A stretch of DNA of 64,000 nt. Origin: Actinomycetota bacterium. Its GTDB lineage: Bacteria > Actinomycetota > UBA4738 > HRBIN12. The translations under genes and the position numbers were made by a program. Under the pieces are notes generated by a model, which saw only the letters and a program-made list of their open reading frames with translations, was not told the origin of the DNA and ran no database searches. This document shows positions 1-19,736 of this stretch, in pieces. Positions within the stretch are counted from its first letter, which is position 1. Every line of letters begins with the position of its first letter. Location of the stretch: assembly GCA_021325015.1 (NCBI GenBank), contig JAJPHY010000054.1, forward strand, positions 8,523 to 72,522. The letters are read 5' to 3'.

Positions 1-1057
1 ACAGGATGGCGAGCGCCGCGAGGACGATCACGCCGTTCGAGAACACCAGCCGGTCTCCGCGGTTGGCGAACTGACGCGGCATGAACCGGTCGCGCGCGAG
101 GATCGCCGACAGGCGCGGGAAGTCCTGGTAGGAGGTGTTGGCCGCCAGCACCAGGATCATCGTCGTGAAGATCTGCACGAGGTAGAAGCCGATCCCTCCC
201 CCGAACGTCGCGTGCGCGACCTGCGCCACCACCGAGCGCTCGTCGGACACCGTGACGTGCATCCGGCTGGCGAGGAACGAGATGCCGAGGAACATGGTGA
301 TCGCGATCGCGCCCATCATCGCGAGGGTCTCCGCCGCGTTCCTCGCCTGGGGGCGGCGGAACGCCGGCACCCCGTTGGAGATCGCCTCCACTCCCGTGAG
401 CGCCGTGGATCCCGACGAGAAGGCTCGCAGCACGATGAACAGGCCGACCGGCCCGGCGACCTTCGCCAGGTCGGCGGCGGGGGGGACGGGCTCGGCGAGC
501 GGACAGCCGCCGACGCACCGGGCGAGGCCTATCGCGACCATCGTGAGGATCGAGACGATGAACGCGTAGGTCGGGAAGGCGAACAGCGTCCCGGACTCCC
601 GAACCCCGCGGAGGTTCGCCAGGGTGATGAAGATCACGAACCCGATCGACAGCTCGACCTTGTAGGGGAGCAGGCTCGTCGCGGCCGACGTCAGGGCGAA
701 GACCCCCGCCACGATCGACACCGCGACCGTGAGCACGTAGTCGGTGAGCAGGGCCCCGGCCGCGATCAGGCCCGGGATGGTCCCGAGGTTCTCCTTGCTC
801 ACGATGTAGGCGCCGCCGCCGTTCGGATACGCCCGAACGGTCTGCCGGTACGAGGCCACGACGATCGCCATCAGGATCGCGATGGCCGCGGCGATCGGCA
901 TCACGTACCGGTAGGCGTAGGCCGCCAGCGTCGCCCCGAGCAGGACGTGCAGGATCTCCTCGGTCGCGTACGCAACGGAGGACAGGGCGTCCGAGGAGAA
1001 CACCGGCAGGGCCAGGATCTTCGGCAGGAGGGTGTGCTCCAGGCGCTGGCTGGCCAT
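1..1057 (-). CDS. APC-superfamily permease, KimA-like K+ uptake transporter paralog. The N-terminal ~350 aa is present; the C-terminus runs past the window edge.
   Basis: Hand translation of the minus strand from ATG at 1057 gives MASQRLEHTLLPKILALPVFSSDALSSVAYATEE...GDRLVFSNGVIVLAALAIL. This aligns residue by residue with the permease at 3427..5931. The first in-frame upstream stop leaves no other start. The + strand ORFs 212..1195 and 252..569 are off-frame artefacts. Confidence 0.7.
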   Translation of the reverse strand, partial: MASQRLEHTLLPKILALPVFSSDALSSVAYATEEILHVLLGATLAAYAYRYVMPIAAAIAILMAIVVASYRQTVRAYPNGGGAYIVSKENLGTIPGLIAAGALLTDYVLTVAVSIVAGVFALTSAATSLLPYKVELSIGFVIFITLANLRGVRESGTLFAFPTYAFIVSILTMVAIGLARCVGGCPLAEPVPPAADLAKVAGPVGLFIVLRAFSSGSTALTGVEAISNGVPAFRRPQARNAAETLAMMGAIAITMFLGISFLASRMHVTVSDERSVVAQVAHATFGGGIGFYLVQIFTTMILVLAANTSYQDFPRLSAILARDRFMPRQFANRGDRLVFSNGVIVLAALAIL

Positions 1058-1139
1058 GGCCCGGCCGACGAGGACCCGCTTCAGGAGGCTGCCGGTGGTG
1101 GTGCGCTGCCGCTCCCCGATGGCGATGGTCCTGCGGATT

Positions 1140-1865
1140 CTAGTTCGAGCGCTCCGCGATCCACCGGTAGCCGACGCCCGGCTCGGTCAGGATGAGCGCG
1201 GGCGCCGCGGCGGCGTCTCCGAGCTTGCGCCGCAGGGCGCGCACGTACACGCGGAGGTAGTGGCTCTCCTGTCCGTATCCCCGTCCCCAGACCTTTCGGA
1301 GCAGCCACTGGTGGGTGAGGAGCTTGCCGGGGTTGGTCACGAGCGCTTCGAGCAGCGCGTACTCGGTCGGCGTGAGGTGGACGAGCTCGCCGCGGAGCGT
1401 GACGCGGCGGCGGGCGAGATCCACCTCGAGGTCTCCGTACCGCTGCAGCGCCGGCGCCGGCTCCTCCGGTTGCGCACGGCGAAGCTGGGCGCGAAGCCGC
1501 GCGAGCACCTCTTCCATGCCGAAGGGCTTCGTCACGTAGTCGTCGGCGCCGGCGTCGAGCGCCGCCACCTTGTCGGCCTGCTGGTCCCGAACCGAGAGCA
1601 CGATCACCGGCACGTCCGAGAACGCGCGGAGCCGCCGAATCACCTCGGTGCCGTCGAGGTCGGGCAGCCCGAGGTCCAGGAACACCAGGTCGGGCGCGCG
1701 CTCGGCCGCGGCGACGAGCGCCTCCTCCCCGTTTGCCGCGGTCCGGACCGCGTAACCGTGCGCCTCGAGGCTCGTGCGGAGCGCGCGGCGGATCTGCGGC
1801 TCGTCGTCGACCACGAGCACCGTGGTGCCGGACCCTCCCGCAAACGGAGCCCGGAGCGAGCTCAC
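1140..1865 (-). CDS. kdpE: OmpR/KdpE-family response regulator (receiver plus winged-helix domain)
   Basis: The C-terminal 240 aa of ORF 1140..2837 read VLVVDDEPQIRRALR...LDLGLPDLDG...DDYVTKPF...LTPTEYALLEAL. The GTG start at 1865 overlaps the kinase TGA stop (GTGA). An alternative GTG lies 15 codons downstream (VLVVDDE). Confidence 0.8.
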   Translation of the reverse strand: MSSLRAPFAGGSGTTVLVVDDEPQIRRALRTSLEAHGYAVRTAANGEEALVAAAERAPDLVFLDLGLPDLDGTEVIRRLRAFSDVPVIVLSVRDQQADKVAALDAGADDYVTKPFGMEEVLARLRAQLRRAQPEEPAPALQRYGDLEVDLARRRVTLRGELVHLTPTEYALLEALVTNPGKLLTHQWLLRKVWGRGYGQESHYLRVYVRALRRKLGDAAAAPALILTEPGVGYRWIAERSN

Positions 1866-3316
1866 GACGCCGGCTCCTGCGGCACCGGCCCCGCGTCCGC
1901 GATCGGCAGCTCGAACACGACCGCCGTTCCGCCTCCCGGCGCCCCCTCGATCCAGATCCGTCCGCCGTGGGCGAGCACGATCGCGCGCGCGATCGCGAGG
2001 CCGAGCCCGCTCCCGCGCCGGCCGTCGGCCCCCTCGCCCCGCACGAACGGCTCGAACGCCCGCTCGCGCTCCCCCGGGGGGATGCCCGGCCCCTGGTCGA
2101 CCACCCGCACCTGGATCGCCCGATGCCAGAGCGAGGCCGAGACCACGACCTCGCCTCCCGGCGGCGAGAACCGCGCGGCGTTCTCGAGGAGGTTCGTGAG
2201 GACCTGATCGATCTGGACCGGATCGATCGGCACCTCCGGCAGGTCCGGCCGGATCACCGTCCGCACCGCGAGCCCCTCGAGCGTCGGCGCCATCCGGTGC
2301 AGGACCGACTCGATCACCTCCTCGATCGAGGTCGGCTCCTTCGCCGGCACGAGCGCGCCGGCTCGCACCCGGGCGAGGTCCAGGATGTTGCCGACCAGCC
2401 GGTTGAGGCGGTCCGTCTCCTCGAGCACGGTCGCGAGCAGCTCGCGCTGCTGCCCCGGATCGTGGGTCGTCGTCGCGTCGAGCAGGCTCGTGACGCTCGC
2501 CTTGATCGAGGCGAGCGGCGTGCGCAGGTCGTGGGTGACCGAGGAGAACAGCGCCGCGCGAAGCTGACTGGTCTCGGATTGGACGAGCGCGGCCCGGACC
2601 TGGACGTCCAGCCTCGCCCGCTCGACGGCCACCGCCACCTGACGAGCACAGGCCTCGAGCAGGTGCAGGTCGGACCCGGCCAGCCGGTCCAGGCTCGCAC
2701 GACGGACGGCGGTGAGGGTTCCGAACGGGACGTTCGCGACCACGATCGGCACGACCGTCGAGAGGCCGGGGTCGGCCCCCGGCTGCTCGGCCGCGCCGTC
2801 GAACCGAACCTCGTCGGTGCCCACGTGGATCTCGCACCGAGCCAGCCCGAACGGCTCGAGCAGGGCCTGCGCGAAGTCGGTCAGGACGCGCTCGAGCGGC
2901 TCGGCCGACAGCAGCCGCGAGGCGAGGTAGTTGAGCAGGCGCGTCTCCTGCTCCCGCCGCGAGGCGCGGCTCCGCTCCTCGAGCGCGCGCGCGAGGAGCA
3001 GCCCGACGATCGACGCCACGACGAGGAACACCCCGAGCGCCAGCCAGTCCTCCACCTTGGCGACGCGGAAGGTGTCGAGTGGCGGCGTGAAGAAGAAGTT
3101 CAGCCCGAGAAACGAGAGGAGCGCCGCGCCCAGGCCGCTCGGCGTCCCGCCCACGGCCGCCGCGGCCACGACGCCGAGCAGATACAGCGACGTCGAGGCG
3201 ACGGCGCCGTAGGAGCGGAGCGCCAGGGCGAGGAGCGTCGCCGCCGCGGGGGTCAGGACGGCGGCGAGGACCGACCGCTCGGCTGAGGCTCGGCCCGGAC
3301 GGAACGGCTCCCTCAT
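1862..3316 (-). CDS. kdpD: KdpD-like sensor histidine kinase, C-terminal half only (4TM, GAF-like, HisKA, HATPase_c). It lacks the N-terminal KdpD/Usp sensor domains.
   Basis: H-box FSSVTHDLRTPLASI, N-box LLENAARFS, and G-boxes DQGPGIPPGE and GSGLGLAIARAIVLAHGG are close to E. coli KdpD. The protein is 484 aa versus ~890 aa for full KdpD. Confidence 0.85.
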   Translation of the reverse strand: MREPFRPGRASAERSVLAAVLTPAAATLLALALRSYGAVASTSLYLLGVVAAAAVGGTPSGLGAALLSFLGLNFFFTPPLDTFRVAKVEDWLALGVFLVVASIVGLLLARALEERSRASRREQETRLLNYLASRLLSAEPLERVLTDFAQALLEPFGLARCEIHVGTDEVRFDGAAEQPGADPGLSTVVPIVVANVPFGTLTAVRRASLDRLAGSDLHLLEACARQVAVAVERARLDVQVRAALVQSETSQLRAALFSSVTHDLRTPLASIKASVTSLLDATTTHDPGQQRELLATVLEETDRLNRLVGNILDLARVRAGALVPAKEPTSIEEVIESVLHRMAPTLEGLAVRTVIRPDLPEVPIDPVQIDQVLTNLLENAARFSPPGGEVVVSASLWHRAIQVRVVDQGPGIPPGERERAFEPFVRGEGADGRRGSGLGLAIARAIVLAHGGRIWIEGAPGGGTAVVFELPIADAGPVPQEPAS

Positions 3317-3323
3317 CTCGGCA

Positions 3324-3389
3324 TCACGCTAGCCGTTTTCACGCGTTCTTCACGCTCCCGCCCGCGGCTTTCACGCCGCGCTTACACGC
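3324..3389. promoter_or_regulatory. Array of five (T)TCACGC direct repeats in the divergent kdpD / K+ permease promoter; candidate response-regulator (KdpE-like) operator
   Basis: CACGC occurs at 3325, 3340, 3351, 3372 and 3385, spaced 15, 11, 21 and 13 nt, the last in TTACACGC form. OmpR-family regulators bind direct repeats with ~10-11 bp periodicity. Confidence 0.4.
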
Positions 3390-3426
3390 CTGGTTCGAAG
3401 CTCGGGGCAGAGAGGACGGCGGTAAG

Positions 3427-5931
3427 ATGGCGATCCGAGAGCGCACGGGGCACGCGGAGCCGCAGGCGCGGCCCGAGCCGGACGGGCGATCGCGCGCCGA
3501 GGGGCGACGGGCCCTTCCTCAGGGCCCGGCCTACCTGGTGAAGCGGGCGATCCTGGGCCCGCCGATCCCCACGCACCGGCTCATCCACGAGCGGCTGGGC
3601 AAGTTCCTCGCCCTGCCCATCTTCTCCTCGGACGCACTGTCCTCGGTGGCCTACGCGACCGAGGAGATGCTCCGCGTGCTCGTTCCCGTGTCGGCCGCGG
3701 CGGCGTTCGCCCTCGTGTTCCCGATCTCGATCGCGATCGGCATCGTCCTGCTCGCGTTGATCTTCAGCTACCGGCAGACGATCAAGGCGTACCCGTCGGC
3801 CGGCGGCGCCTACATCGTCACCAAGGACAACTTCGGGCTCTTGCCGGCGCAGGTCGCCGGGGTCGCGCTCCTCACCGACTACGTGCTGACCGTCGCGGTC
3901 TCGATCTCGGCGGGCGTGGCGGCCATCGTCACGGTCTACACCGGCCTGTACCCGTTCCGCGTGTGGATGGCGGTCGGGTTCCTCGCGATCCTCATGTGGG
4001 GGAACCTGCGGGGCGTCAAGGAGTCCGGACGGCTCTTCGCCTCGCCGACCTACGTGTTCATCTTCATGATCTTCTCGCTCCTCGCCGTCGCGGCGTTCAA
4101 GCTCGCGACCGGGCACCTCCAGCCGGCGGCCCCCCCGCCGTCGGCGACCGGCCACGGGCTCCTGTACGGCGTCTCGCTGTTCGTGGTGCTCCGAGCGCTC
4201 GCCTCGGGATCGACCGCGATGACGGGCGTCGAGGCGATCTCCAACGGCGTCCCCGCGTTCCGGCCCCCCGAATGGAGGAACGCCCGCGCGACGCTGCTGA
4301 TCATGGGCGCGATCCTCGGAACGATGTTCCTCGGCATCTCGTACGTGGCCCACCGCCTCCTGATCGTCCCGGATCCCTCCGAGCGCAAGACCGTGCTCGG
4401 GATGATCGCGCGCGAGGTGTTCGGACCCACCGGGCTCGGGCACGCCGCATTCTTCCTCCTCCAGATCGCGACGATGGCGGTCCTGGTCCTCGCGGCCAAC
4501 ACGTCGTTCGCCGACTTCCCGAGGCTCGCGAACTTCCACGCCGGCGACTCGTTCATGCCGAGGCAGTTCACGCGTCGGGGGCACCGGCTCGTGTTCTCGA
4601 ACGGGATCCTCGCGCTCGGCGCGGCCGCCGGGCTCATGATCGTGGGCTTCCAGGCCAACGTGACGCGGCTGATCCCCTTCTACGCGATCGGGGTATTCAC
4701 GTCGTTCTCGATGTCGCAGGCGGGAATGGCCAAGCGACACTGGAAGCTGCGCGAGCCCGGATGGCGTCGCGGGATCGCGATCAACGGCTTCGGCGCGCTC
4801 GCCACGGCGGTCGTCGACGTGGTCATCATCATCACGAAGTTCTCCGAGGGGGGATGGGTGATCCTCGTCCTCGTCCCGATCCTGGTGTGGCTGCTGGTCC
4901 GGATGAACCACCGCTACGAGCGCGAGCGCCGAGAGCTCGAAGAGCACCTCGAACCGTTCGACCGGTCAACGATCCGCAAGCCCGCGGTGGTCCTGCTCGT
5001 CGAGGACCTCGACCGCAAGACCATGCACGCGCTCCAGTACGCCAAGACCATCCGGCCGGAGAGCGTCTCCGCGGTGCACTTCGCCGGCGCCCGGGGGACC
5101 GACGGACTCGAGCAGCGGTGGCGGGAGCTCGGCATCGACGTCCCGTTGAAGGTCGTCCGCTGCGACGGCCACCTGCCGAGCGCGCTCGCCGGCTTCGTGA
5201 GCTCGGTCCCCGAGGGCCGGGACGTGAACGTGATCGTCCCCGGCCCCGCGCGGATGGGGATCTGGGAACGGCTCCGCCGCGGCCGGACGGGCGCGCAGCT
5301 CGCGCGGGCCCTCCTGCCGTACGGGCGCGTGCGCGTGACGACGGTCAAGGATCACCCGGGGCCAGGGCACATGGTCACCGAATCCGTCGGCGGTCGGACC
5401 CGCCTGCGCGTCGTCCCGCGGAGCAGCCACCGGGTCATCGTGCTGGTCGACAAGGTCGATCGCGCCGTGATCCGCGCCGTCCGGTACGCGCTCTCGCTCG
5501 GTGCGACCGACGTGTGGGCGGTGCACGCGGCCGTGGACCCCGATCTCCAGGAGCACGTGATCCGCCGGTGGATGGAGCTCGGACTGCCCGTTCCGCTCGA
5601 CGTCATCGAGTGCTGGGACCGGAACGTCCCGCGCGCCCTCGAGCGCTACGTGGCCGAACAGACCGGAACGGACTGCGAGGTCACGATCGTCATGCCGAGG
5701 CGCGACTACGCGCAGCTCCGACAGCGCATCCTGCACGACCGGACGAGCCGCAGGATCGCGCAGGCGCTCGGCCGCTACGAGCACGTCGACCTCGCCGTCG
5801 TTCCCTTCTACTTCGACAAGGTCCACGCGGCGGACCGACCCCGACCCGTCGAGGCGCCCGAGTCCACCACCCCCCTCCCCTCGGGCGCCTCGATCCCATC
5901 CGGCAACGGCCAGGCGGGTCGGATAAGCTGA
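3427..5931 (+). CDS. APC-superfamily KimA-like K+ transporter with a C-terminal cytoplasmic extension of two USP-like domains
   Basis: Twelve-TM core with LALPIFSSDALSSVAYATEE. The C-terminal ~350 aa hold two repeats with USP signatures (VVLLVEDLDRKTMHALQYA...VNVIVPG and RVIVLVDKVDRAVIRAVRYA...EVTIVMPRR). The true start may be GTG 3538, because the first ~37 aa are not conserved in the paralog. Confidence 0.8.
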   Translation: MAIRERTGHAEPQARPEPDGRSRAEGRRALPQGPAYLVKRAILGPPIPTHRLIHERLGKFLALPIFSSDALSSVAYATEEMLRVLVPVSAAAAFALVFPISIAIGIVLLALIFSYRQTIKAYPSAGGAYIVTKDNFGLLPAQVAGVALLTDYVLTVAVSISAGVAAIVTVYTGLYPFRVWMAVGFLAILMWGNLRGVKESGRLFASPTYVFIFMIFSLLAVAAFKLATGHLQPAAPPPSATGHGLLYGVSLFVVLRALASGSTAMTGVEAISNGVPAFRPPEWRNARATLLIMGAILGTMFLGISYVAHRLLIVPDPSERKTVLGMIAREVFGPTGLGHAAFFLLQIATMAVLVLAANTSFADFPRLANFHAGDSFMPRQFTRRGHRLVFSNGILALGAAAGLMIVGFQANVTRLIPFYAIGVFTSFSMSQAGMAKRHWKLREPGWRRGIAINGFGALATAVVDVVIIITKFSEGGWVILVLVPILVWLLVRMNHRYERERRELEEHLEPFDRSTIRKPAVVLLVEDLDRKTMHALQYAKTIRPESVSAVHFAGARGTDGLEQRWRELGIDVPLKVVRCDGHLPSALAGFVSSVPEGRDVNVIVPGPARMGIWERLRRGRTGAQLARALLPYGRVRVTTVKDHPGPGHMVTESVGGRTRLRVVPRSSHRVIVLVDKVDRAVIRAVRYALSLGATDVWAVHAAVDPDLQEHVIRRWMELGLPVPLDVIECWDRNVPRALERYVAEQTGTDCEVTIVMPRRDYAQLRQRILHDRTSRRIAQALGRYEHVDLAVVPFYFDKVHAADRPRPVEAPESTTPLPSGASIPSGNGQAGRIS

Positions 5932-5938
5932 CGCGGCG

Positions 5939-6598
5939 ATGCGGGTGATCATCGTTGGGTGCGGGAGGGTCGGCTCCGAGCTGACCATCCAGCTCGCCAA
6001 GGCCGGCCACGACGTGACGATCATCGACAAGCGCCCCTCGGCGTTCGACCGCCTGCCGCCGGGGTTCGAGGCGCGAACGATGGTCGGGTTCGGGTTCGAC
6101 CGCGAGCTGCTCGAGGAGGCGGGGATCAAGGACGCCGACGCGTTCATCGCGGTGACCAACGGTGACAACTCGAACATCGTGGCGGCCCGCGTGGCGCGCG
6201 AGCACTACCACGTGCCGAAGGTCATCGCCCGGATCTACGACCCCCGACGGGCCGAGATCTACGAGCGACTGAACATCCCCACGGTGGCGACGACGACCTG
6301 GGGCGTGAAGCAGATCATGCTGATGCTGTCGCACGCCCGCGAGGAGATCAAGGAGAGCCTCGCCGGCGGCGACCTGTTCCGGATGCGGATCGGCGTCCCC
6401 GGGCACCTGGTCGGCAAGCCCGTCAACCGGCTGAACGTCGACGGCAAGGTCGTCGTGGTGGCGGTCGATCGCGGCGGGCACGGGTTCATCCCGGTCGCCT
6501 CGAGCACGTTCCAGGAGGGGGACTTCGTCGGCCTGATCGTGCACAAGGACGCGCTCGAGCTCCTCGACGAACTCCTGGCCCCGACCGTGGAGCACTGA
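5939..6598 (+). CDS. trkA: TrkA-N/TrkA-C K+ transport regulatory subunit (ceoB-like)
   Basis: Begins MRVIIVGCGRVGSELTIQLAKAGHDVTIIDK with a Rossmann GxGxxG motif. The C-terminal TrkA-C (RCK_C) domain is present. Confidence 0.85.
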   Translation: MRVIIVGCGRVGSELTIQLAKAGHDVTIIDKRPSAFDRLPPGFEARTMVGFGFDRELLEEAGIKDADAFIAVTNGDNSNIVAARVAREHYHVPKVIARIYDPRRAEIYERLNIPTVATTTWGVKQIMLMLSHAREEIKESLAGGDLFRMRIGVPGHLVGKPVNRLNVDGKVVVVAVDRGGHGFIPVASSTFQEGDFVGLIVHKDALELLDELLAPTVEH

Positions 6599-6599
6599 G

Positions 6600-7295
6600 A
6601 TGCGCGTGGTGATCTCCGGAGCCGGGGCCGTCGGACGCCACCTGGCGTCCGACCTTCGTCTGCGCGGTCACGATGTGCTGCTGATCGAGCAGGACCCGGC
6701 CACGCTCAAGGAGGCCAAGGAGTGGGCGCCCGACGTCGAGTACGTGCTCGGCGACGCGTGCGAGCTCTGGGTGCTCGAGAAGGCGAACCTGAAAACCGCG
6801 GACGTCGTCGTGGCCTCGACCGGGGACGACGAGGACAACCTGGTGACCTCGCTCCTCGCCAAGCAGGAGTACGCGGTCCCCCGCGTGCTCGCCCGGGTGA
6901 ACCACCCGCGCAACGAGTGGATGTTCACCGAGCAGTGGGGGGTGGACGTCGCCGTCTCGGTCCCCCACCTGCTCACGGCGCTCGTGGAGGAGGCGGTGAC
7001 CGTCGGCGACCTCGTCCGCCTGCTGCGTCTGGAGGGCGGCCGGGTGGCGCTGGTCGAGCTCACGATGCCCGACACGTCGCCCAACGCCGGCCGCCCGATC
7101 TACGAGCTCCGTCTGCCCGCCGACTCGGCGATCGTGGCCGTGCTCCGCGAGGGCCACGTGGTCATCCCGCAGCCCGAGTCGGTGATCGCGGCGGGGGACG
7201 AGGTCCTCGCCCTGTCCTCGGCCGAGTCGGAGGCGGCGCTCAGGCTGGCGATCGTCGGCGAGGGCGTCCCCGGCGGCTCGCCGCTCGACGAGTAG
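6600..7295 (+). CDS. trkA: TrkA-N/TrkA-C K+ transport regulatory subunit (ceoC-like)
   Basis: Begins MRVVISGAGAVGRHLASDLRLRGHDVLLIEQD, with a C-terminal RCK_C domain. The ATG lies 1 nt after the upstream stop. Confidence 0.85.
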   Translation: MRVVISGAGAVGRHLASDLRLRGHDVLLIEQDPATLKEAKEWAPDVEYVLGDACELWVLEKANLKTADVVVASTGDDEDNLVTSLLAKQEYAVPRVLARVNHPRNEWMFTEQWGVDVAVSVPHLLTALVEEAVTVGDLVRLLRLEGGRVALVELTMPDTSPNAGRPIYELRLPADSAIVAVLREGHVVIPQPESVIAAGDEVLALSSAESEAALRLAIVGEGVPGGSPLDE

Positions 7296-7317
7296 GGGCG
7301 CGGGGCCTCGGACAGAC

Positions 7318-7343
7318 AGACCCTGCGGACTAGTCTGTTTCAG
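7318..7343. repeat. Palindromic element GACTAGTCTG-TTT-CAGACTAGTC (10-bp stem) downstream of trkA; member of an ACTAGTCTG repeat family
   Basis: Read directly from the sequence. Related copies occur at 23196..23216 and 37840..37858. All sit 0-25 nt after + strand stops, locally GC-poor within a 70 % GC context. Confidence 0.5.
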
Positions 7344-7383
7344 ACTAGTCTGAGGGCCGACTGCTCCGGTGCCGCGCCGAGCG

Positions 7384-7797
7384 TCAGGCCGCGAAGTCGA
7401 AGCTCGGGTTCACCATCCGGCGCCCCTGACGGAGCTCCCCGACCACGCCTTCCACGATCAGACGCGTGCCGAGGGTAAGCCCGGGGATCGTCCGGCGCCC
7501 CATCCAGATCACCGACATCTCGCCGGTCCCGTCCGAGATCAGCGCCTCGAGCGACTCGAACCCCTCGATCGGCCGCACGGTGATTCGCTTGACCACCCCG
7601 GCCACCCGAACCCGGTCCCGGGTCGGGACCTCCGCGATCCGCGTCGTCCCCGGAACCTGCGAGGCCCACCGTCGGATCTCCTCGGCCAGGCGCTGCTCGT
7701 CGCTCTCCGCCATGCGGGAGAGGAAGCGACGGAACGGGTCGAGGATGCCCACGCGCCTATCGAAGGTGGTCGAGGCTCCGGCCGCAACTGGAGGCAC
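7384..7797 (-). CDS. OB-fold (tRNA_anti-like) nucleic-acid-binding domain protein
   Basis: RVRVAGVVKRITVRPIEGFESLEALISDGTGEMSVIWMGRR...RLIVEGVVGE is a typical OB-fold barrel. An alternative start at MAESDEQ (7713) would give 109 aa. Confidence 0.6.
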   Translation of the reverse strand: MPPVAAGASTTFDRRVGILDPFRRFLSRMAESDEQRLAEEIRRWASQVPGTTRIAEVPTRDRVRVAGVVKRITVRPIEGFESLEALISDGTGEMSVIWMGRRTIPGLTLGTRLIVEGVVGELRQGRRMVNPSFDFAA

Positions 7798-7800
7798 GGC

Positions 7801-10065
7801 TCAGGAGACGGCCGCCTCCTCCTTGGTCGTCTCGCGCGGGATCAGCAGCTCGCTCTTGCGGGCCTTCGAGATCCAGATCGCGGCCGCGAGGAGCACGGCC
7901 GCCGCCGCCGCGAACAGGAACCGCAGCGACCCGTCCCGAAACTCGACGACGAGCGGTGCGATCAACAGGGCGACGAGGTTCATGACCTTGATCATCGGGT
8001 TGAGCGCCGGACCGGCCGTGTCCTTGAAGGGGTCACCGACCGTATCGCCGATGACGGCGGCCCTGTGCTGCTCGCTGTTCTTGCCGCCGTAGTGGCCGGC
8101 CTCGACGTACTTCTTGGCGTTGTCCCAGGCCCCGCCGGAGTTCGACAGCATGACCGCCAGAAGCTGGCCGGTCAGGATCGCTCCCGCGAGGAACGCCCCG
8201 AGCGCCTCGGCCTTGAGGAGGAACCCCACGATCACCGGCGCCAGCACTGCGAGCAGGCCGGGCGTCATCAGCTCGCGGAGCGAGGTCTTCGTGCAGATGT
8301 CGACCACGCGCGCGTACTCGGGCTTCTCGGTGTAGTCCATGATTCCCGGGTGCTCGCGGAACTGGTTCCGCACCTCCACGACCACCTGCGAGGCGGCTCG
8401 GCCGACCGCGCGGATCGCGAGCGAGGAGAACAGGAACCCCACCGCGCCGCCGACGAGCAGCCCGACCAGCACGTCCGGCCGATCGACGGGGATCGGGAAC
8501 TCCTGGAGGTTGCCCTTGCCGAGCGCCTTCAGCACGGCGTCGGCGAACGACCCGAACAGCGAGGTCGCGGCGATCACGGCGGTCGCGATCGCCATGCCTT
8601 TGGTGATGGCCTTGGTCGAGTTCCCGATGGCGTCGAGGCCCGTGAGGATCTCCGCCGGACGCCCCTCGAACTCGCCGGACATCTCGGCGATGCCCTGCGC
8701 GTTGTCGGAGACCGGTCCGTACGTGTCCATCGACACGATGACGCCCACGGTCGTGAGCATCCCCATCCCGGTGAGCGAGATGAAGTACAGGCGCTCGAAG
8801 TTGTTGTTGCCGAGCAGGTACGCTCCGGTCACGGCGGCCGCGATCACCAGGATCGCCCACACCGTCGACTCGAGCCCGACCGAGAAGCCCGACAGGATCG
8901 TCGTCGCCGGGCCCGTCTGGGTGGCCTCGGCGATCTCGCGCACCGGCTTGTACTTGGTGTCGGTGAAGTACTGCGTGAGGATCTGGATGACCGAGGCGAG
9001 GATCAGTCCGAACAGCACGGCGACCGCCGGCCGGTAGTCCTTCATGTACCAACCGGCGATCACGAAGACGGCCGCCGCCGAGAGACCGGCCGACACGAAG
9101 AACCCGCGGTTGATCGACTTCATCCCGTGCTCGTCCTCGCTCCGGGGCGAGACCGCAAGGATGCCGACGATCGACGTGATCACGCCGACGGCGCGGACGA
9201 ACAGCGGGAACATCACGCCGCCGATCGCGCCGACCTGCGAGCCGGCGAACGCGGACGCGCCGAGGATCAGCGAGGCGACGAGCGTGACCTCGTAGGACTC
9301 GAACAGGTCGGCCGCCATCCCGGCGCAGTCGCCGACGTTGTCGCCCACGTTGTCGGCGATCACGGCCGCGTTGCGCGGGTCGTCCTCGGGGATCCCCTTC
9401 TCCACCTTGCCGACGAGGTCGGCCCCGACGTCGGCCGCCTTGGTGAAGATCCCGCCGCCCACCCGCATGAACATCGCGAGGAGCGCCCCGCCGAACCCGA
9501 AGCCGACGAGCACGTCGGTCGCGTCGGTCTTGTACACGATCAGGATCACGGTGGCCCCGAGAAGCCCCAGCCCGACGGTGAACATCCCCGCCACCCCGCC
9601 GGCGCGGAAGGCCAGCCGCATCGCGCGCCGCAGGCCCGATTCCCGCGCCGCATCGGCCACCCGGACGTTCGCGCGCACGGCCAGCCACATGCCCGTGAAC
9701 CCGGTGATCCCGGAGAAGCCCGCGCCCAGGATGAAGGCGATCGAGCGCCCGAACCGGATGAACAGGTCGCCGTGCACGGCGCCCTCGGGCACCGGCAGCA
9801 GGAAGAAGATCGCCACCGTGAGGATGACCAGGAACACACCCACCGTGGTGAACTGCCGCCGCAGGTAGGCGCTCGCCCCCTCCTGGATCGCCCGCGCGAT
9901 CTCCTTCATCTTGTCCGTGCCCTGGGGCGCGGCGAGCACCTCGCGTACCAGGTAGTAGGCGAAGAGCAGCGCGATCAGCGAGATGCCCAGGATGATCCAG
10001 AGCGCCCTGTCTTCGAACGAGCCGAACACCGCCTTGATCGGCCCGCCCTCGGCGGCCAGGTACAT
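7801..10065 (-). CDS. hppA: Membrane-bound H+-translocating inorganic pyrophosphatase (V-PPase), probably the K+-independent type
   Basis: MYLAAEGGPIKAVFGS...ADNVGDNVGDCAGMAADLFESYEV...DAIGNSTKAITKG, where the Lys in the GNxxKA motif marks the K+-independent type. ATG 10065 is preceded by GAGGAGG. ORF 7801..10725 carries a spurious ~220 aa N-terminal extension. Confidence 0.9.
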   Translation of the reverse strand: MYLAAEGGPIKAVFGSFEDRALWIILGISLIALLFAYYLVREVLAAPQGTDKMKEIARAIQEGASAYLRRQFTTVGVFLVILTVAIFFLLPVPEGAVHGDLFIRFGRSIAFILGAGFSGITGFTGMWLAVRANVRVADAARESGLRRAMRLAFRAGGVAGMFTVGLGLLGATVILIVYKTDATDVLVGFGFGGALLAMFMRVGGGIFTKAADVGADLVGKVEKGIPEDDPRNAAVIADNVGDNVGDCAGMAADLFESYEVTLVASLILGASAFAGSQVGAIGGVMFPLFVRAVGVITSIVGILAVSPRSEDEHGMKSINRGFFVSAGLSAAAVFVIAGWYMKDYRPAVAVLFGLILASVIQILTQYFTDTKYKPVREIAEATQTGPATTILSGFSVGLESTVWAILVIAAAVTGAYLLGNNNFERLYFISLTGMGMLTTVGVIVSMDTYGPVSDNAQGIAEMSGEFEGRPAEILTGLDAIGNSTKAITKGMAIATAVIAATSLFGSFADAVLKALGKGNLQEFPIPVDRPDVLVGLLVGGAVGFLFSSLAIRAVGRAASQVVVEVRNQFREHPGIMDYTEKPEYARVVDICTKTSLRELMTPGLLAVLAPVIVGFLLKAEALGAFLAGAILTGQLLAVMLSNSGGAWDNAKKYVEAGHYGGKNSEQHRAAVIGDTVGDPFKDTAGPALNPMIKVMNLVALLIAPLVVEFRDGSLRFLFAAAAAVLLAAAIWISKARKSELLIPRETTKEEAAVS

Positions 10066-10268
10066 GGAGGTCCCCTCCTCGGATTGTTGGTGAAGAAGCC
10101 TTCTATCCTGCGGAAACCCCGGGATTATAGGTGGAAGCCCTCGCCGCCGACCCCGGTCGAACGGAGGGCGTTTCCGGGGGTCCAACGCGGGGTGCCGCGT
10201 GCGGGGCATCCGGGCCGCGGCCGGCGTGCGGAGGGGGCGGGTGCGGACGCTCGCTCGTGTCGCAAGGG

Positions 10269-12026
10269 TCACGTGAGCGGCCCGACGACCGCGCCGAGCT
10301 CGCGGTCGAGGTCCTCCAGCCCGGCACGGAGGGCGTGCCCCGCGGCGGCGACCTCCTCCGCGTGCTCCGCGCTTCGCTCCCGCTCCTCCTGCGCGCGACG
10401 AACGCCCGCGCGGAGGCTCTCGACCGTGCTCGAAAGACGGTCCACGAGCTCGCGCTCGAGCGCGCGCACGCTCTGGTCCAAGCGCGTGACGAAGTCGTAG
10501 CGGAGCCGACCCATGTGCTTGTCGACCAGCCGTGGGATCGCCTCCATCACGTCCCGCTCCACGAGCTTGCGGGCCACCTTCCTCGGGAGGTACCGCCGCA
10601 GGTCGGGAAGGAGCGACTCCAGAATGGTCGGGACCTCGAAGAAGGAGTAGGAGAACTCGGTCCTCCGCGAGAGCTCGACGCGGGCCACCCCGGTCTCGAG
10701 GCGGATCCCGAGGATGTCGCCGCACACGCGGACGGTCTCCTCCGCGATCTGCTCGGCCTCCTGGACGAACCGGGCGGTCGCCTTCCGGAACGCCTCGGCC
10801 ACCCGCCGATCCTCGGCCCCTCGCCAGCGGTCGACGTCGGCGCGCAGCCGGGCCCGCACGAGCTCGTCCAGCTCGGAGCCCATCGTTCGGACCTCCTCCG
10901 CCCGGTCCAGGAACTCGCGGGCCACCCGACGGAGCTGATCCTCCTCGCGCCGTCGCAGCGCCTCGAGGTCGGCCTCGATCGTCGCGACCAGCCGGTCGCG
11001 CTCCTTCCGCACGAGCGCCCGTACGTCGTCCTGGCGCTCGGCCGCGCGGGCGAAGACCCGCTCCATCTCCTCGACGCGGCGGGCGAGGTCCTCCTGCGGC
11101 AAGGCCGCCGCCCGCTCCTCCACGTCGATCGAGTTCCGGAGGTCGGCGATCAGCCGCCGCGCGCGCTCGGCGACCGACTCCAGGATCGTGCCTCCCTTCT
11201 CGCGGAGCAGGAACGCCCGGAAGTCGCGCTCGAACGCTGGGAGCCCTGAGTCCTCCAGCGCCGTCGGGTCGGCTTCAAGCTTGGCGCGCAGCGCGTTCCG
11301 GGCGCTCACCGGGTACAGGCGAACCTCGTGGCCCACGGCATCGGCGATCACGCCTCGGGTGAACTCGATCGCCTCCTCGCGATCGGACTCGGACAGATAG
11401 TCGACCTTGTTCAGGACGAAGAACATCCGGGCCGCCTCCTCCCGCACCTCCCGGAGGAACGCCCGCTCGGCGTCGGAGATCGGCGGATCGGCCGTCGTGA
11501 GGAAGATCGCGGCGTCGGCCTCAGGCACGAACGCCCGGGCCGCCTCGGTGTTGTGGGCGTAGACGCTCCCCACGCCCGGCGTGTCGACCAGGAACACGCC
11601 GTCGCGGAGCTCCTCGGCCGGGTAGTGGAGGACGGCGCGCTCCACGCCCCGGCGGTTCTCGGGGTTCCCACGCTCCGTGACGAAGGCGGCGAGCTCGTCG
11701 ACACCGATCGGCTCGACCCGGCCGCCCGTACGCACCACCTCCGCGCGGACCTCATCGCCCCAGGTCACCGCCGTGACGACCGAGGTGAGCGGGACGACGG
11801 CGGAGGGCAGGACCTCCGCGCCGAGCAGCGCGTTGACGAACGTGGTCTTTCCCCGCTTGAACTCGCCGACCACCACCACGTTGAAGCGTTCCTCGGCGAG
11901 CTTGTTCGACAGCGCTCGGCAGGCCTCCGCCACTCCGTGCCCGTTGCGCCGCTCGGCGAGCTCGGCGAGTCGAGCGAGGAGCGCGGTGAGGCGGTCGCGG
12001 CCCTCCGCGTACGTCCGGTCCCCCAT
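10269..12026 (-). CDS. Bacterial dynamin-like GTPase (BDLP, IniA/IniC-like)
   Basis: P-loop VVGEFKRGKTTFVNALLG, switch motif DTPGVGS and NKVD, followed by a long coiled-coil stalk region. The SD AGGAG lies 5 nt before the ATG. Confidence 0.8.
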   Translation of the reverse strand: MGDRTYAEGRDRLTALLARLAELAERRNGHGVAEACRALSNKLAEERFNVVVVGEFKRGKTTFVNALLGAEVLPSAVVPLTSVVTAVTWGDEVRAEVVRTGGRVEPIGVDELAAFVTERGNPENRRGVERAVLHYPAEELRDGVFLVDTPGVGSVYAHNTEAARAFVPEADAAIFLTTADPPISDAERAFLREVREEAARMFFVLNKVDYLSESDREEAIEFTRGVIADAVGHEVRLYPVSARNALRAKLEADPTALEDSGLPAFERDFRAFLLREKGGTILESVAERARRLIADLRNSIDVEERAAALPQEDLARRVEEMERVFARAAERQDDVRALVRKERDRLVATIEADLEALRRREEDQLRRVAREFLDRAEEVRTMGSELDELVRARLRADVDRWRGAEDRRVAEAFRKATARFVQEAEQIAEETVRVCGDILGIRLETGVARVELSRRTEFSYSFFEVPTILESLLPDLRRYLPRKVARKLVERDVMEAIPRLVDKHMGRLRYDFVTRLDQSVRALERELVDRLSSTVESLRAGVRRAQEERERSAEHAEEVAAAGHALRAGLEDLDRELGAVVGPLT

Positions 12027-12031
12027 CGAGC

Positions 12032-12058
12032 GCTCCTACCCCCGCCATCGGTAGGAGC
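12032..12058. promoter_or_regulatory. Palindrome GCTCCTACC-N9-GGTAGGAGC, 5 nt upstream of the dynamin-like gene start and containing its SD
   Basis: Read directly from the sequence. A near-identical copy at 12195..12221 abuts the ATG of the divergent gene. Confidence 0.45.
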
Positions 12059-12104
12059 CATCAGCCCGGAGCGGGCGGTCGGCGGGCCCCATCGCCTGTT
12101 GTGG

Positions 12105-12132
12105 AGTATAGGCATCGGTCCCTCCTATACTG
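12105..12132. promoter_or_regulatory. Inverted repeat AGTATAGG-N12-CCTATACT in the centre of the divergent promoter
   Basis: Perfect 8-bp arms read from the sequence. The element is AT-rich and -10-like (TATAGG / TATACT). Confidence 0.35.
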
Positions 12133-12194
12133 CGTCGGGCGATTCGTTCGCCCGAGGCGATGGAGCTCGCCGAACCGCTCGACGTGAGCTGATA

Positions 12195-12221
12195 GCTCCT
12201 ACCCGTCGGGGAGGTAGGGGC
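12195..12221. promoter_or_regulatory. Palindrome GCTCCTACC-N9-GGTAGGGGC directly abutting ATG 12222 and containing the SD
   Basis: Read directly from the sequence. It is a twin of the element at 12032..12058. Confidence 0.45.
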
Positions 12222-16965: not shown

Positions 16966-18309
16966 CTACGAGGGCGCCCGCTCCCGCGTGCGCAGCAGCA
17001 GGAAGCCCAGCAGCCCGGTGAGCACGGCCGCGAGCACGACCCCCACCCGAGCGGCGTCGAGCAGCGGGCCGGTGAGCGAGAGCTCGGCGACGAAGAGGGA
17101 CACGCTGAACGGCACCCCGGCTGCGGCCCCGACGCCGAGCACCCGCCTCCAGGTCAGGCCGGCCGGGAGACCGCTCGCGCCCAGTCGCACCGCCAGCCAC
17201 GACCCCAGGACGATCCCCAGGGGCTTGCCCAGAGCGCGGGCCAGCAGCATCCCCACCACCACCCGCTCGGAGCTCGTCGTGGCGAGCGCGTGCGGGACGA
17301 TCCGGACGCCGGCGTCGGCCAGGACGAACACCGGGAGGACCACGTAGCTCGTCCACGGGTGCAGGGCGGCCTCCAGCCTGGCGAGCGGCGAGACCGCGCC
17401 GCGGCAGAGCCTCGAGAGCTCGAGCCACTGCGCCGCGTCGGCATCGGGCGGAGAGGGATCGTCCACGGTCTCGTCGGCGATCCGGTGGGCCTCGCGGCTC
17501 ACCGCGCGGGGTCGGTGGAAGGGCACCGCCGGCGTGAGCAGCCCCATGGCGACGCCCGCGAGCGTCGGGGACACCCCCGAGCCGTGGAGCGCGAGCCACA
17601 TCGCGGTGCCGAGCGCGCCGTAGACGACGCTCGAGCGGACGTCGATCCGGCGGGCGACGAAGACCACGGCGCCGATGGCCAGCGCGAGGGCGACCGACCC
17701 CGCGGAGAGGCGGTGGGAATAGAAGATCGCCACGGCCGCGATCGTGCCCAGGTCGTCCGCGATCGCCAGCGACAGGACGAACACGCGGAGGGAGGAGGGC
17801 GCTCGAGGAAACGCGAGCGACAGAACGCCGAGCGCGAGCGCGATGTCGGTTGGCATCGCGGCGCCCCAGCCGTGCGAGGCGGGCGGGCTCGGGTTCGCCA
17901 CCAGGTACAGGAGCGCGGCGACGACCATCCCCCCGAGCGCCGCGGCCGCCGGCAGGATCGCCGCGCGCCGGCTCCGCAGCTCCCCCGTGAGAAGCTCCCG
18001 TTTGACCTCGAGCCCGGCCACGAGGAAGAACAGCGTCATCAGCCCGTCGCGGATCCAGCCCCGGAGGTCGTCCTCGACCCCCCACCGCCCGAGCCGAACG
18101 ACGAGGTGGCGGCTCCACAGATCCTCGTACGCCCCCCGGAGCGGCGAGTTGGCCCACACCAGGGCGACCGCGAGCGCGAGCAGCAGCAACAGGCCGCTCG
18201 CCACCTCGGTCTCGAGGAACGACTGCAACGGCCGGATCACCCGCCGGGGAATCGGCCGGTCCGAGCGCGACCACGGCAGGCGGAGCTCCTCGCCCCGTTC
18301 GACCTTCAC
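16966..18309 (-). CDS. nhaA: Na+/H+ antiporter NhaA (paralog 1)
   Basis: Contains LFFLVAGLEVKRELLTGELR, AIADDLGTIAAVAIFY and PWTSYVVLPVFVLADAGV. The GTG start at 18309 overlaps the stop of the upstream paralog (GTGA). Confidence 0.8.
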   Translation of the reverse strand: MKVERGEELRLPWSRSDRPIPRRVIRPLQSFLETEVASGLLLLLALAVALVWANSPLRGAYEDLWSRHLVVRLGRWGVEDDLRGWIRDGLMTLFFLVAGLEVKRELLTGELRSRRAAILPAAAALGGMVVAALLYLVANPSPPASHGWGAAMPTDIALALGVLSLAFPRAPSSLRVFVLSLAIADDLGTIAAVAIFYSHRLSAGSVALALAIGAVVFVARRIDVRSSVVYGALGTAMWLALHGSGVSPTLAGVAMGLLTPAVPFHRPRAVSREAHRIADETVDDPSPPDADAAQWLELSRLCRGAVSPLARLEAALHPWTSYVVLPVFVLADAGVRIVPHALATTSSERVVVGMLLARALGKPLGIVLGSWLAVRLGASGLPAGLTWRRVLGVGAAAGVPFSVSLFVAELSLTGPLLDAARVGVVLAAVLTGLLGFLLLRTRERAPS

Positions 18310-19736
18310 CGCCGGCGCTCCTCCTCGGCCGGCCGATCGCCCCGGAGGATCGCGTAGCCGAGGCCCCCCGCGACGACCGAGGCGAGCAGCACGCCGAGGC
18401 GGGCGTGCTCGAGCAGGGCGCCGCTCGGGAAGGCGAGCTCCGCGACGAAGATCGAGAGGGTGAAGCCGATCCCGGCCACGGACGCGGCCCCCGCGAGCCG
18501 CCTCCACGTGACGCCCTCGGGGAGGGTGCCCACGCCCGTCCGCACCGCCAGGGCCGAGGCGCCCAGGATGCCGACGAGCTTGCCCACAACCAGCCCCACC
18601 ACGACGCCGAGCGTGACGCGGCTCGCCGCGGCGCTTCGGAGGGCGTCCGCGGACAGGCGGACCCCGGCGTTCGCGAGCGCGAACAGCGGGACCACGACGA
18701 ACGTCGGCCACGGGTGGAGGGCGGACTCCAGGCGGGCGAGGGGCGACACGGCCTCGCGCGAGAGCCGTGCCAGTGAGAGCCACTGCGGCGCATCCGCATC
18801 CGGCGGCCATGGATCGTCCACCGTCTGATCGGCGACCCGGTGCGCCTCACGGCTCACGGCCGCCGGGCGCTGGAAGGGCGCCGCCGGCGTCAGCAGTCCC
18901 AGAACCACGCCGGCGATCGAGGCATGCACGCCGGACTCGAACACGGCCACCCAGAGCGCGACCCCGAGCGCCAGGTAGACCGCACCAGCCCGCACGTGGA
19001 TCCGGCGCAGGAGCACGGCGAGCGCGACCAGGGCGAGCGCGACCAGCAGCGGGACCCACGAGACCGATCCGGAGTCGACAACCGCGATCACCACGATCGC
19101 GCCGATGTCGTCGACGATCGCGAGGGTGAGCAGGAAGGGCTTCAGCCCCCCGGGGGCGCGACCCGCCGCGAGCGTCAGCCCGCCCAGGGCGAACGCGATA
19201 TCGGTCGCCATCGGGACGCCCCATCCGCGTCCGCCGTCCCCGCCGGCGTTCAGCGCCAGGTACAGGACGGCGGGCACCACCATCCCGCCGACCGCGGCCA
19301 CGACCGGCAGAGCGGCCGCGCGCATCGTGCGGAGCTCCCCGGTCAGGACCTCACGCTTGATCTCCAGTCCCACGACGAGGAAGAACAGCGCCATGAGGCC
19401 GTCGTTCACCCAGTGCCGCAGGTCCTGCGAGACGGGCACGCCCCCGGCTCTCAGGGTGAGCCTCGTGTGCCAGAGGGTTTCGTACGCGCCCCTCCAGGGC
19501 GAGTTCGCCCACCCGAGGGCGATCACGGCGGCGGCGAGGAGGACCAGGCCGCCTGCGGACTCGGTCCCCAGGAAGGCCTGCAGGGGCTGCACGATCCGGC
19601 GCGGGAGCGGGCGTTCCGAACGGGACCAGGGCGTGCGGATACCCTCGCCCAGCGCGGTCGGGTCGGTCGGTCGGTGCGCCACGCGGTCCTCGTCGCCGAC
19701 CAGGCTTCCCGGCGCACCCTCGATGGACGGCCTCAT
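18306..19736 (-). CDS. nhaA: Na+/H+ antiporter NhaA (paralog 2)
   Basis: Contains LFFLVVGLEIKREVLTGELR and AIVDDIGAIVVIAVV. ATG 19736 gives the start MRPSIEGAPG. The conserved leader PWSRSERPLPRRIVQPLQAFLGTE is shared with paralog 1. Confidence 0.75.
   Translation of the reverse strand: MRPSIEGAPGSLVGDEDRVAHRPTDPTALGEGIRTPWSRSERPLPRRIVQPLQAFLGTESAGGLVLLAAAVIALGWANSPWRGAYETLWHTRLTLRAGGVPVSQDLRHWVNDGLMALFFLVVGLEIKREVLTGELRTMRAAALPVVAAVGGMVVPAVLYLALNAGGDGGRGWGVPMATDIAFALGGLTLAAGRAPGGLKPFLLTLAIVDDIGAIVVIAVVDSGSVSWVPLLVALALVALAVLLRRIHVRAGAVYLALGVALWVAVFESGVHASIAGVVLGLLTPAAPFQRPAAVSREAHRVADQTVDDPWPPDADAPQWLSLARLSREAVSPLARLESALHPWPTFVVVPLFALANAGVRLSADALRSAAASRVTLGVVVGLVVGKLVGILGASALAVRTGVGTLPEGVTWRRLAGAASVAGIGFTLSIFVAELAFPSGALLEHARLGVLLASVVAGGLGYAILRGDRPAEEERRR

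Follow-up and report, generated by a model that had tools for sequence, protein, structure and literature searches.

A candidate K+-uptake module of uncultured Actinomycetota pairs a KdpDE-family two-component system with KimA-like permeases and a split TrkA

What does a KdpDE-like two-component system control where no Kdp pump is encoded beside it? The question is raised by a 64,000-nucleotide (nt) stretch of an Actinomycetota genome (GenBank assembly GCA_021325015.1, contig JAJPHY010000054.1, positions 8,523 to 72,522; G+C about 72%), here called the window. On its minus strand, a KdpD-like histidine kinase is followed by a KdpE-family response regulator and by KimA-like permease 1, which is cut by the window start; on the plus strand, KimA-like permease 2 is followed by trkA1 after a 7-nt gap and by trkA2 after a 1-nt gap, and 110 nt (3317–3426) lie between the starts of the kinase and of permease 2. 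An earlier note, made from the sequence alone, had described this locus as a KdpDE-like circuit that controls secondary K+ importers instead of a Kdp pump. We consider it fairly probable that the locus is a self-contained K+-uptake module under a third paralog of the KdpD/KdpE family. The module is real and conserved, and is apparently an undescribed KdpDE variant dedicated to KimA-type importers and a split TrkA, without being categorically new.

Conserved gene neighbourhood

The closest relatives of the window are metagenome-assembled Actinomycetota throughout. An alignment-based scan with one genome per species yielded 80 loci, with kinase identities from 80% down to 47%, and neighbourhoods were counted by tblastn mapping on related loci from Actinomycetota metagenome-assembled genomes (MAGs). 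In 75 of 75 loci, the regulator comes next after the kinase. Divergently upstream of the kinase stands a KimA-like gene in 50 of these and trkA1 in 22 (together 72/75), and a KimA-like gene comes after the regulator in 44 of 72. Where at least 9 kb are available on both sides, all 41 loci hold a KimA-like gene and 32 hold trkA. The transporter operon itself is rearranged from locus to locus, as permease–trkA1–trkA2 or trkA1–trkA2–permease and with three permease subtypes, and the synteny outlasts these rearrangements down to about 47–50% kinase identity. Because the association persists despite the varied gene order, it speaks for selection rather than shared recent ancestry, and these counts support a linkage of the two-component system to KimA-like and TrkA genes far beyond chance.

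A search of PLSDB for a cultured organism with the same module (tblastn, including mislabelled Nonomuraea and Embleya chromosomes) returned only canonical KdpD, at no more than 37% identity. The Nonomuraea match is a kdpABC–kdpD–kdpE locus, and the Streptomyces plasmid KimA-like gene found there stands alone. Our literature searches found no paper on a KdpE-type regulator of kimA or trkA.

A four-box candidate operator

The intergenic region between kinase and permease 2 carries four direct repeats which, in permease 2 sense, read TTCACG (3338–3343), TTCACG (3349–3354), TTCACG (3370–3375) and TTACACG (3382–3388), with box starts spaced by 11, 21 and 11–13 nt. The whole string, TTCACG-N5-TTCACG-N15-TTCACG-N6-TTACACG, is followed by 8 nt, GAAGCT, a GAGAGGA ribosome-binding site and the permease 2 ATG; towards the kinase, 6 nt separate the first box from TAGCGT, and 9 nt separate TAGCGT from the kinase ATG. 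The perfect pair, CGTGAA-N5-CGTGAA in kinase sense, occurs once in the 64 kb, where our own base-composition estimate puts the chance expectation at about 0.002. When the window and related loci were scanned together (1.39 Mb in total), 72 of 74 box-pair matches with at most one mismatch fell in the kinase/transporter intergenic region, all of them in kinase sense. One match lies near a kdp gene, upstream of full-length kdpD in the locus L025, and no TTCACG box pair was found at a kdpFABC promoter in the 1.39 Mb.

The same four-box architecture, with an identical 15-nt gap between the pairs, recurs in 49 of 77 loci. In relatives, cGAnnCT is kept at a fixed offset beyond the last box, and GCTAGCGT, which adjoins the kinase start, is kept at a fixed distance from box 4. 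Furthermore, the boxes are identical in the window and its sister strain, which differ at 36 of 6,001 positions (the genic differences comprise 25 synonymous and 9 non-synonymous changes).

This layout suggests that the kinase mRNA is leaderless or near-leaderless and that GAAGCT is the putative −10 element of the permease 2–trkA operon. Transcripts would then begin at about 3316 for the kinase and 3409 for permease 2, and a leaderless permease 1 mRNA at about 1126. The geometry of GAAGCT matches that of the kdp promoters of relatives, which have four-box arrays of their own, in kdp sense, about 8 nt from a TAGnnT −10. Given their likeness to the kdp promoters of Escherichia coli and of relatives, the permease 2-side boxes are oriented and arranged like an activating KdpE-type site, and we infer that the boxes act as an operator at which the regulator would bind and activate. 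As a scan of positions 900–7900 gave no sigma-70 consensus promoter, the proposed promoter elements are drawn from cross-locus conservation only. An intrinsic terminator scan of the same interval returned a single terminator-like site, at chance level.

A short KdpD-like kinase and its regulator

The kinase contains a DUF4118 membrane block (84.7 bits, over the Pfam cut-off), with which the protein opens; neither the N-terminal KdpD domain (PF02702) nor a Usp domain was found in it by Pfam. A GAF_3 match scores 21.4 bits against a Pfam cut-off of 27. Its top NCBIfam match is KdpD, covering profile positions 599–885 of 895 only, at 204.7 bits and below the equivalog cut-off of 1,123. It aligns with residues 422–880 of E. 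coli KdpD at 31% identity, its best solved structure is the KdpD DHp-CA core (6LGQ_C), and H262, N379, D407/G409/G411 and G435/G437/G439 (the H, N and G boxes) are invariant in our alignment. By sequence, the kinase is the membrane and catalytic half of KdpD (DUF4118, putative GAF-like linker, DHp-CA) without the N-terminal KdpD/Usp half.

The regulator, whose GTG start overlaps the kinase stop (GTGA), is by the same kind of comparison a KdpE-family member. It is 52% identical to E. coli KdpE; its best solved structures are KdpE (E about 1e-65), with MtrA as the next family (5e-46), and its top NCBIfam match is again KdpE, at 247 bits and below the equivalog cut-off of 325. The earlier note's identification of a kdpE-like regulator and a C-terminal-only kdpD-like kinase on the minus strand is borne out by Pfam, NCBIfam and E. 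coli alignments alike, as is that of a second KimA-like permease and two trkA genes divergent from the kinase (6S3K match at E = 1e-114; TrkA_N and TrkA_C found twice).

KimA-like permeases

Permease 2 matches Bacillus subtilis KimA (6S3K) at E = 1e-114, and identity to KimA is 42–46% over the transmembrane domain and the first cytoplasmic domain. Eight residues coordinate K+ in KimA: D36, Y43, D117, T121, S125, T230, E233 and Y377 (bioRxiv 10.1101/2023.07.05.547876). All eight are kept in permease 2 and in the full-length permease 1 of the sister strain, and all seven that the window covers are kept in its own permease 1. Both permeases are KimA-type K+ transporters by sequence, for which K+/H+ symport is predicted.

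A tandem repeat makes up the cytoplasmic tail of permease 2: residues 521–640 (nt 4987–5346) match residues 670–792 (nt 5434–5802) at 34% identity (E = 4e-15). The doubled domain is also present in permease 1 (L083, 4876–7203). The domain is single in KimA and in homologues carried on plasmids of cultured bacteria (Streptomyces, Priestia, Rhodococcus), and the latter align only with residues ~30–640 of permease 2. Rfam models, applied at the gathering threshold, gave no cyclic di-AMP (ydaO) or other riboswitch upstream of the permeases; their only matches in the window are two fluoride riboswitches at another place.

The start of permease 1 bears on how it is transcribed. The earlier note had counted about 80 nt between regulator and permease 1, up to the ATG at 1057. 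Orthologues begin 23 codons upstream of that ATG, where they have ATG or GTG and the window has ATC (1126..1124); measured to this homology-defined start, the distance from the regulator stop is 13 nt. The sister contig (L083, 99.4% identical) has ATG at the position and encodes a permease 1 product of 775 amino acids (aa). The ATC may conceivably be a sequencing error; otherwise, if its mRNA is leaderless, permease 1 of this strain may be translated poorly, or from ATG 1057 without the conserved N-terminus LLKRVLVGRA. TAGAAT or TAGCAT is kept in 15 of 15 inspected orthologous loci, 8–11 nt ahead of the permease 1 start, where it overlaps or follows the regulator stop, and it is kept even where the regulator ends earlier (L017, L026). 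This conservation suggests that permease 1 also has a promoter of its own at TAGAAT/TAGCAT. No regulator boxes were found upstream of permease 1 (1058–1139). A single kinase–regulator–permease 1 operon, as the earlier note had proposed, is therefore still plausible, with the conserved hexamer pointing to additional, separate transcription of permease 1.

A split TrkA and its possible partner

TrkA1 aligns with residues 1–104 and TrkA2 with residues 234–435 of Vibrio TrkA (4J9U); on this alignment, trkA1 and trkA2 are the N- and C-terminal halves of one split TrkA. E. coli TrkH found no match by tblastn (E < 1e-3) in the window or the 80 related loci. These Actinomycetota may lack TrkH. It is conceivable, although we regard it as doubtful, that their split TrkA ring, with TrkA1 and TrkA2 as counterparts of mycobacterial CeoB and CeoC, partners KimA-type transporters with a doubled cytoplasmic domain, and not a Trk channel, in a unit that a KdpDE paralog would turn on in response to K+. 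TrkA acting with KimA-like transporters is the most interesting open possibility at this locus.

In some relatives, trkA1 directly faces the kinase and has a leader of about 250–300 nt, in which UUUCCUCCGAG is invariant and precedes a 12-bp hairpin whose loop, CUCCCUCCAG, does not vary either. The hairpin is found in L017 (3667–3704), L052 (3282–3319), L045–L047, L049, L057, L063 and others, and the window is without it. Compensatory changes occur in 5 of its 12 pairs, and the trkA1 leaders of relatives match no Rfam family. The element may be an anti-Shine–Dalgarno-like regulatory leader.

Relation to the kdp cassette

The window holds no kdpFABC, as the earlier note had stated: E. coli KdpA, KdpB and KdpC queries (tblastn, E < 1e-8) gave no match in the 64 kb, and in relatives they match at 45–73% identity. 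The idea that the module stands in for a Kdp pump does not survive the comparison with those relatives, many of which hold the module together with kdpFABC. In 20 loci, kdpABC lies within 10 kb of the module and has its own kinase and regulator, the very arrangement that the note had taken as evidence against its proposal, should it occur elsewhere in the genome. Across related MAGs, KdpDE-type proteins form three clades: a module-linked short kinase, a kdp-linked short kinase and a kdp-linked full-length KdpD. Between clades, regulators are 50–56% and kinases 29–36% identical, and all three are about equally far from E. coli KdpDE. What stands of the note's circuit is control of secondary importers by a KdpDE-like pair, which synteny and the conserved four-box site favour; the pair belongs to a separate paralog clade, and is not a Kdp regulator that has exchanged its pump.

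The closest comparison is contig JBAIGK010000288.1 (L088/L091), whose module kinase clusters at 90% with that of the window. Its gene order is permease 1, regulator and kinase on one strand, then permease 2, trkA1 and trkA2 divergently, then a second regulator (RR2) and kinase (HK2) in the orientation of the first pair, followed by kdpF-A-B-C, a KdpD N-domain protein, and an OB-fold open reading frame (ORF) with an H+-pyrophosphatase gene pointing back at them. In blastn, the match of L088 1–5685 to window 1664–7295 (89.8% identity) breaks off right at the trkA2 stop, and L088 14216–17064 matches window 7388–10248 at 88.8%. Between these flanks, L088 carries an 8.5-kb cassette of kdpFABC, its own short kinase and regulator and the separate KdpD N-domain protein. 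At the syntenic site of the window the cassette is absent and 92 nt stand in its place. The same junction, together with an identical kinase protein, is found in an independent assembly (L094, SRR24490439).

In more distant relatives, too, kdp lies beside trkA2, so that loss of kdp in the window lineage is the simplest reading, and on this comparison Kdp has more probably been lost than KdpDE rewired. The window genome may indeed have no Kdp. Within the 92-nt spacer past trkA2 lies a perfect 10-bp hairpin, GACTAGTCTG-TTT-CAGACTAGTC (7328–7350), and L010 and L094 have the same palindrome directly behind trkA2. We take it for a probable terminator that serves the convergent genes jointly, and not for a scar left by the deletion.

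The two systems also differ in their presumed recognition elements. The recognition helix reads VEVLRVFV in RR2 and SHYLRVYV in the module regulator, and the kdp promoter of L088 has box sequences unlike those of the module operator. Since both helices and boxes differ, sequence comparison suggests that the module and the kdp-dedicated system are insulated from each other.

Further features were seen in the kdp operons of relatives. Several (L088, 8160–8243; L003, L010, L020, L021, L024, L035) encode an extra hydrophobic peptide of about 27 aa, for example MADLVMLAVTVAFFVFGFALVVWMDRI, whose stop overlaps the kdpF start (ATATGA), placing two small peptides ahead of kdpA. Genes for the KdpD N-domain only (KdpD and Usp, 390–560 aa) lie beside kdpC in L008, L009, L018, L033, L034, L036, L087 and L088, with the kinase half encoded separately and divergent from kdpF. 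In L018, the N-domain-only gene adjoins trkA2, and no kdpABC is present in the 4.8 kb shown.

Comparison with known systems

The window pair shares with E. coli KdpDE an almost unchanged recognition-helix motif (SHYLRVY, compared with SHYLRIY in KdpE), the DUF4118 membrane block and the DHp-CA core, whereas it lacks the N-terminal serine-kinase domain and Usp as well as linkage to kdpFABC. The E. coli kdp promoter has TTTATAC-N4-TTTACAC in kdp sense. The window boxes TTCACG/TTACAC resemble TTTACAC, with the same 11-bp phasing and the same orientation towards the transporter operon, and regulator binding to them is predicted; in E. coli, however, one box pair is centred upstream of the −35, whereas the window has four boxes set against the −10s of two divergent promoters. 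When its N-terminal region is removed, E. coli KdpD continues to respond to K+ limitation, but its repression at high K+ is poor (PMC2714519). As a serine kinase, the N-terminal domain phosphorylates KdpB, and KdpD also occurs in split versions (PMC11018627). Those split systems have short kinases of the same domain architecture, but their kinases lie beside kdpFABC and an N-domain protein (as in L087 and L088), while the window kinase belongs to another clade and lies beside KimA-like and trkA genes. The survey in question set aside additional KdpD variants where a full-length KdpD is present (Silberberg et al. 2024, PMC11018627).

As set out above, the window permeases keep the eight K+-coordinating residues of B. 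subtilis KimA, a KUP family K+/H+ symporter. They differ from it in their doubled cytoplasmic domain, in having no ydaO riboswitch, and, for permease 2, in sharing an operon with trkA and in an apparently two-component-controlled transcription. The CeoB/CeoC locus of Mycobacterium tuberculosis, with Rv2690c, which we take to be KimA-like, resembles the window in its two half-size TrkA genes beside an APC-type permease. Unlike at the ceo locus, permease and both trkA genes of the window lie on one strand with 7- and 1-nt gaps, and a KdpDE-like pair faces them. Transposon sequencing of M. tuberculosis gives ceoB and its neighbour Rv2690c a common phenotype (PMC12216072), and CeoBC is treated as a Trk system for which no membrane partner is named (PMC11601456). 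Streptomyces venezuelae has two uncharacterised KimA-like genes, no TrkH, KtrB or KtrD, and a KdpDE that is unstudied (PMC10117811). KdpD of Streptomyces coelicolor (SCO5871) reaches at least residue 652 and so is longer than the 484-aa window kinase. No dedicated regulator like that of the window is described for the mycobacterial or Streptomyces loci.

Features and neighbouring genes

Table 1. Features of the window between its start and the site of the kdp cassette
Feature	Position	Strand	Basis or remark
KimA-like permease 1, N-terminal 375 codons only	1..1126	−	Pfam AA_permease_2; 46% identity to KimA
TAGAAT, −10-like hexamer	1137..1142	−	overlaps regulator stop; 10 nt ahead of permease 1 start
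KdpE-family response regulator, 241 aa	1140..1865	−	receiver and OmpR-type winged helix (Response_reg and Trans_reg_C)
KdpD-like histidine kinase, 484 aa	1862..3316	−	DUF4118, HisKA and HATPase_c
TAGCGT, −10-like hexamer of putative kinase promoter	3326..3331	−	9 nt ahead of kinase ATG
Four-direct-repeat candidate operator	3338..3388	+ (permease 2 sense)	conserved across loci
GAAGCT, −10-like hexamer for permease 2–trkA operon	3397..3402	+	8 nt past last box
KimA-like permease 2, 834 aa	3427..5931	+	KimA 6S3K match, E = 1e-114
trkA1, RCK protein, 219 aa	5939..6598	+	TrkA_N and TrkA_C (Pfam)
trkA2, RCK protein, 231 aa	6600..7295	+	TrkA_N and TrkA_C (Pfam)
92-nt spacer at kdp-cassette site	7296..7387		blastn of L088 against the window

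After trkA2 come an OB-fold ORF (7384–7797, minus strand) and an H+-translocating pyrophosphatase gene (7801–10140, minus strand), and an NhaA-type Na+/H+ antiporter is encoded farther along the window (16969–18810). Presumably ceoC of M. tuberculosis has an OB-fold gene downstream as well, a sign, if so, that the neighbourhood is old. Two fluoride riboswitches stand back to back at 12045–12105 (minus strand) and 12147–12208 (plus strand), with 48.7 and 47.2 bits. The minus-strand riboswitch is 19 nt ahead of a dynamin-family GTPase gene (10269..12026), and the plus-strand one precedes ORFs for two soluble proteins (about 145 and 176 aa, with no Pfam match) and then DUF6062. Neither has crcB or eriC after it, which makes the cargo unusual, and L088 has the same gene set.

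Discussion

We propose that the kinase would sense K+ in the manner of the C-terminal half of E. coli KdpD and would phosphorylate the regulator, two dimers of which would bind the four boxes. The two permease 2-side boxes would activate permease 2–trkA1–trkA2 when K+ is scarce, a role suggested by their orientation and by how far they lie from a weak −10 (GAnnCT), both as at the kdp promoters of relatives. The remaining pair, which overlaps the −35/spacer region of the putative leaderless kinase promoter, would autoregulate the kinase and regulator genes, possibly with permease 1, in either sign. A paralog that works apart from Kdp would have no use for the N-terminal KdpD domain, whose serine-kinase activity is directed at KdpB. 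In the window lineage, the neighbouring kdp cassette and its own sensor pair would have been lost, leaving only the KimA/TrkA circuit at the locus.

Other explanations deserve weight to differing degrees. The short kinase could be the kinase half of a split KdpD that serves a kdpFABC elsewhere in the genome, in which case the locus would reflect clustering of K+ genes and not regulation. Such splitting, which leaves a TM/GAF/DHp-CA kinase and a KdpD/Usp protein encoded apart from it, is known (PMC11018627), relatives do have N-domain-only genes beside kdpC, and the window genome is seen only in part, through these 64 kb. We nevertheless give this explanation little credence: every visible kdpFABC has a kinase and regulator of another clade (29–36% and 50–56% identity), boxes of its own and a different recognition helix, the module's box pair is at none of the kdpFABC promoters scanned, with the single match upstream of the full-length kdpD in L025, and the whole cassette is missing from the syntenic site. 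The boxes could also serve only to autoregulate the kinase–regulator operon, or bind another protein, with permease and trkA expressed constitutively like M. tuberculosis CeoBC, whose Trk system is described as constitutive (PMC11601456). The distance from the boxes to the kinase −10 is indeed fixed in every locus, including those with a long trkA1 leader; yet cGAnnCT is equally fixed with respect to the last box on the permease 2 side, the box orientation fits the transporter operon as it does at kdp promoters, and a K+ gene stands divergent to the kinase in 72 of 75 loci, all of which makes purely autoregulatory boxes improbable.

Somewhat less remote, though still unlikely, is that the pair does control the KimA/TrkA genes but senses turgor or osmolarity, ionic strength or pH instead of K+. 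The K+-sensing residues of KdpD are poorly defined, the kinase is only about 30% identical to E. coli KdpD, and its GAF-like region is below the Pfam cut-offs; against this, the neighbouring targets are all K+ uptake components, and the closest characterised sensor half is that of a K+ sensor (PMC2714519).

The K+-uptake module that we favour has its own weak points. With kinase and regulator both below the KdpD and KdpE equivalog cut-offs, K+ sensing is proposed by analogy only. GAAGCT is off consensus, and the sigma-70 scan gave no promoter; with respect to the kinase promoter the boxes point the opposite way, and the sequence therefore does not reveal the sign of autoregulation. Permease 1 of the window strain lacks a canonical start codon, and a kdp operon elsewhere in its genome might conceivably answer to the pair as well. 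The wiring rests on comparison, every organism involved is uncultured, and it is by such comparison that we infer the K+ signal, the binding of the regulator and any TrkA–KimA partnership.

The papers that we found describe KimA and Ktr importers as regulated by cyclic di-AMP, through a riboswitch and direct binding, and we found no report of a two-component system acting on them. Two-component control of secondary K+ importers would be an addition to this picture, provided by a dedicated KdpDE-type paralog whose candidate operator is clear and conserved. A non-Kdp paralog without exactly the N-terminal half that is reported to phosphorylate KdpB is also a natural experiment on the role of each half of KdpD, and a kdp cassette that is present or absent between genomes with ~90% identical flanks speaks to the modularity of K+ systems. 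The tight operon of a KimA-like gene and a split trkA, with no TrkH seen nearby, makes the question of the actinobacterial TrkA partner testable and bears on CeoBC of M. tuberculosis. If TrkA does act with KimA-type transporters, the two would form an RCK–KUP transporter complex that a dedicated two-component system switches, and the membrane partner that CeoBC has so far lacked would be identified.

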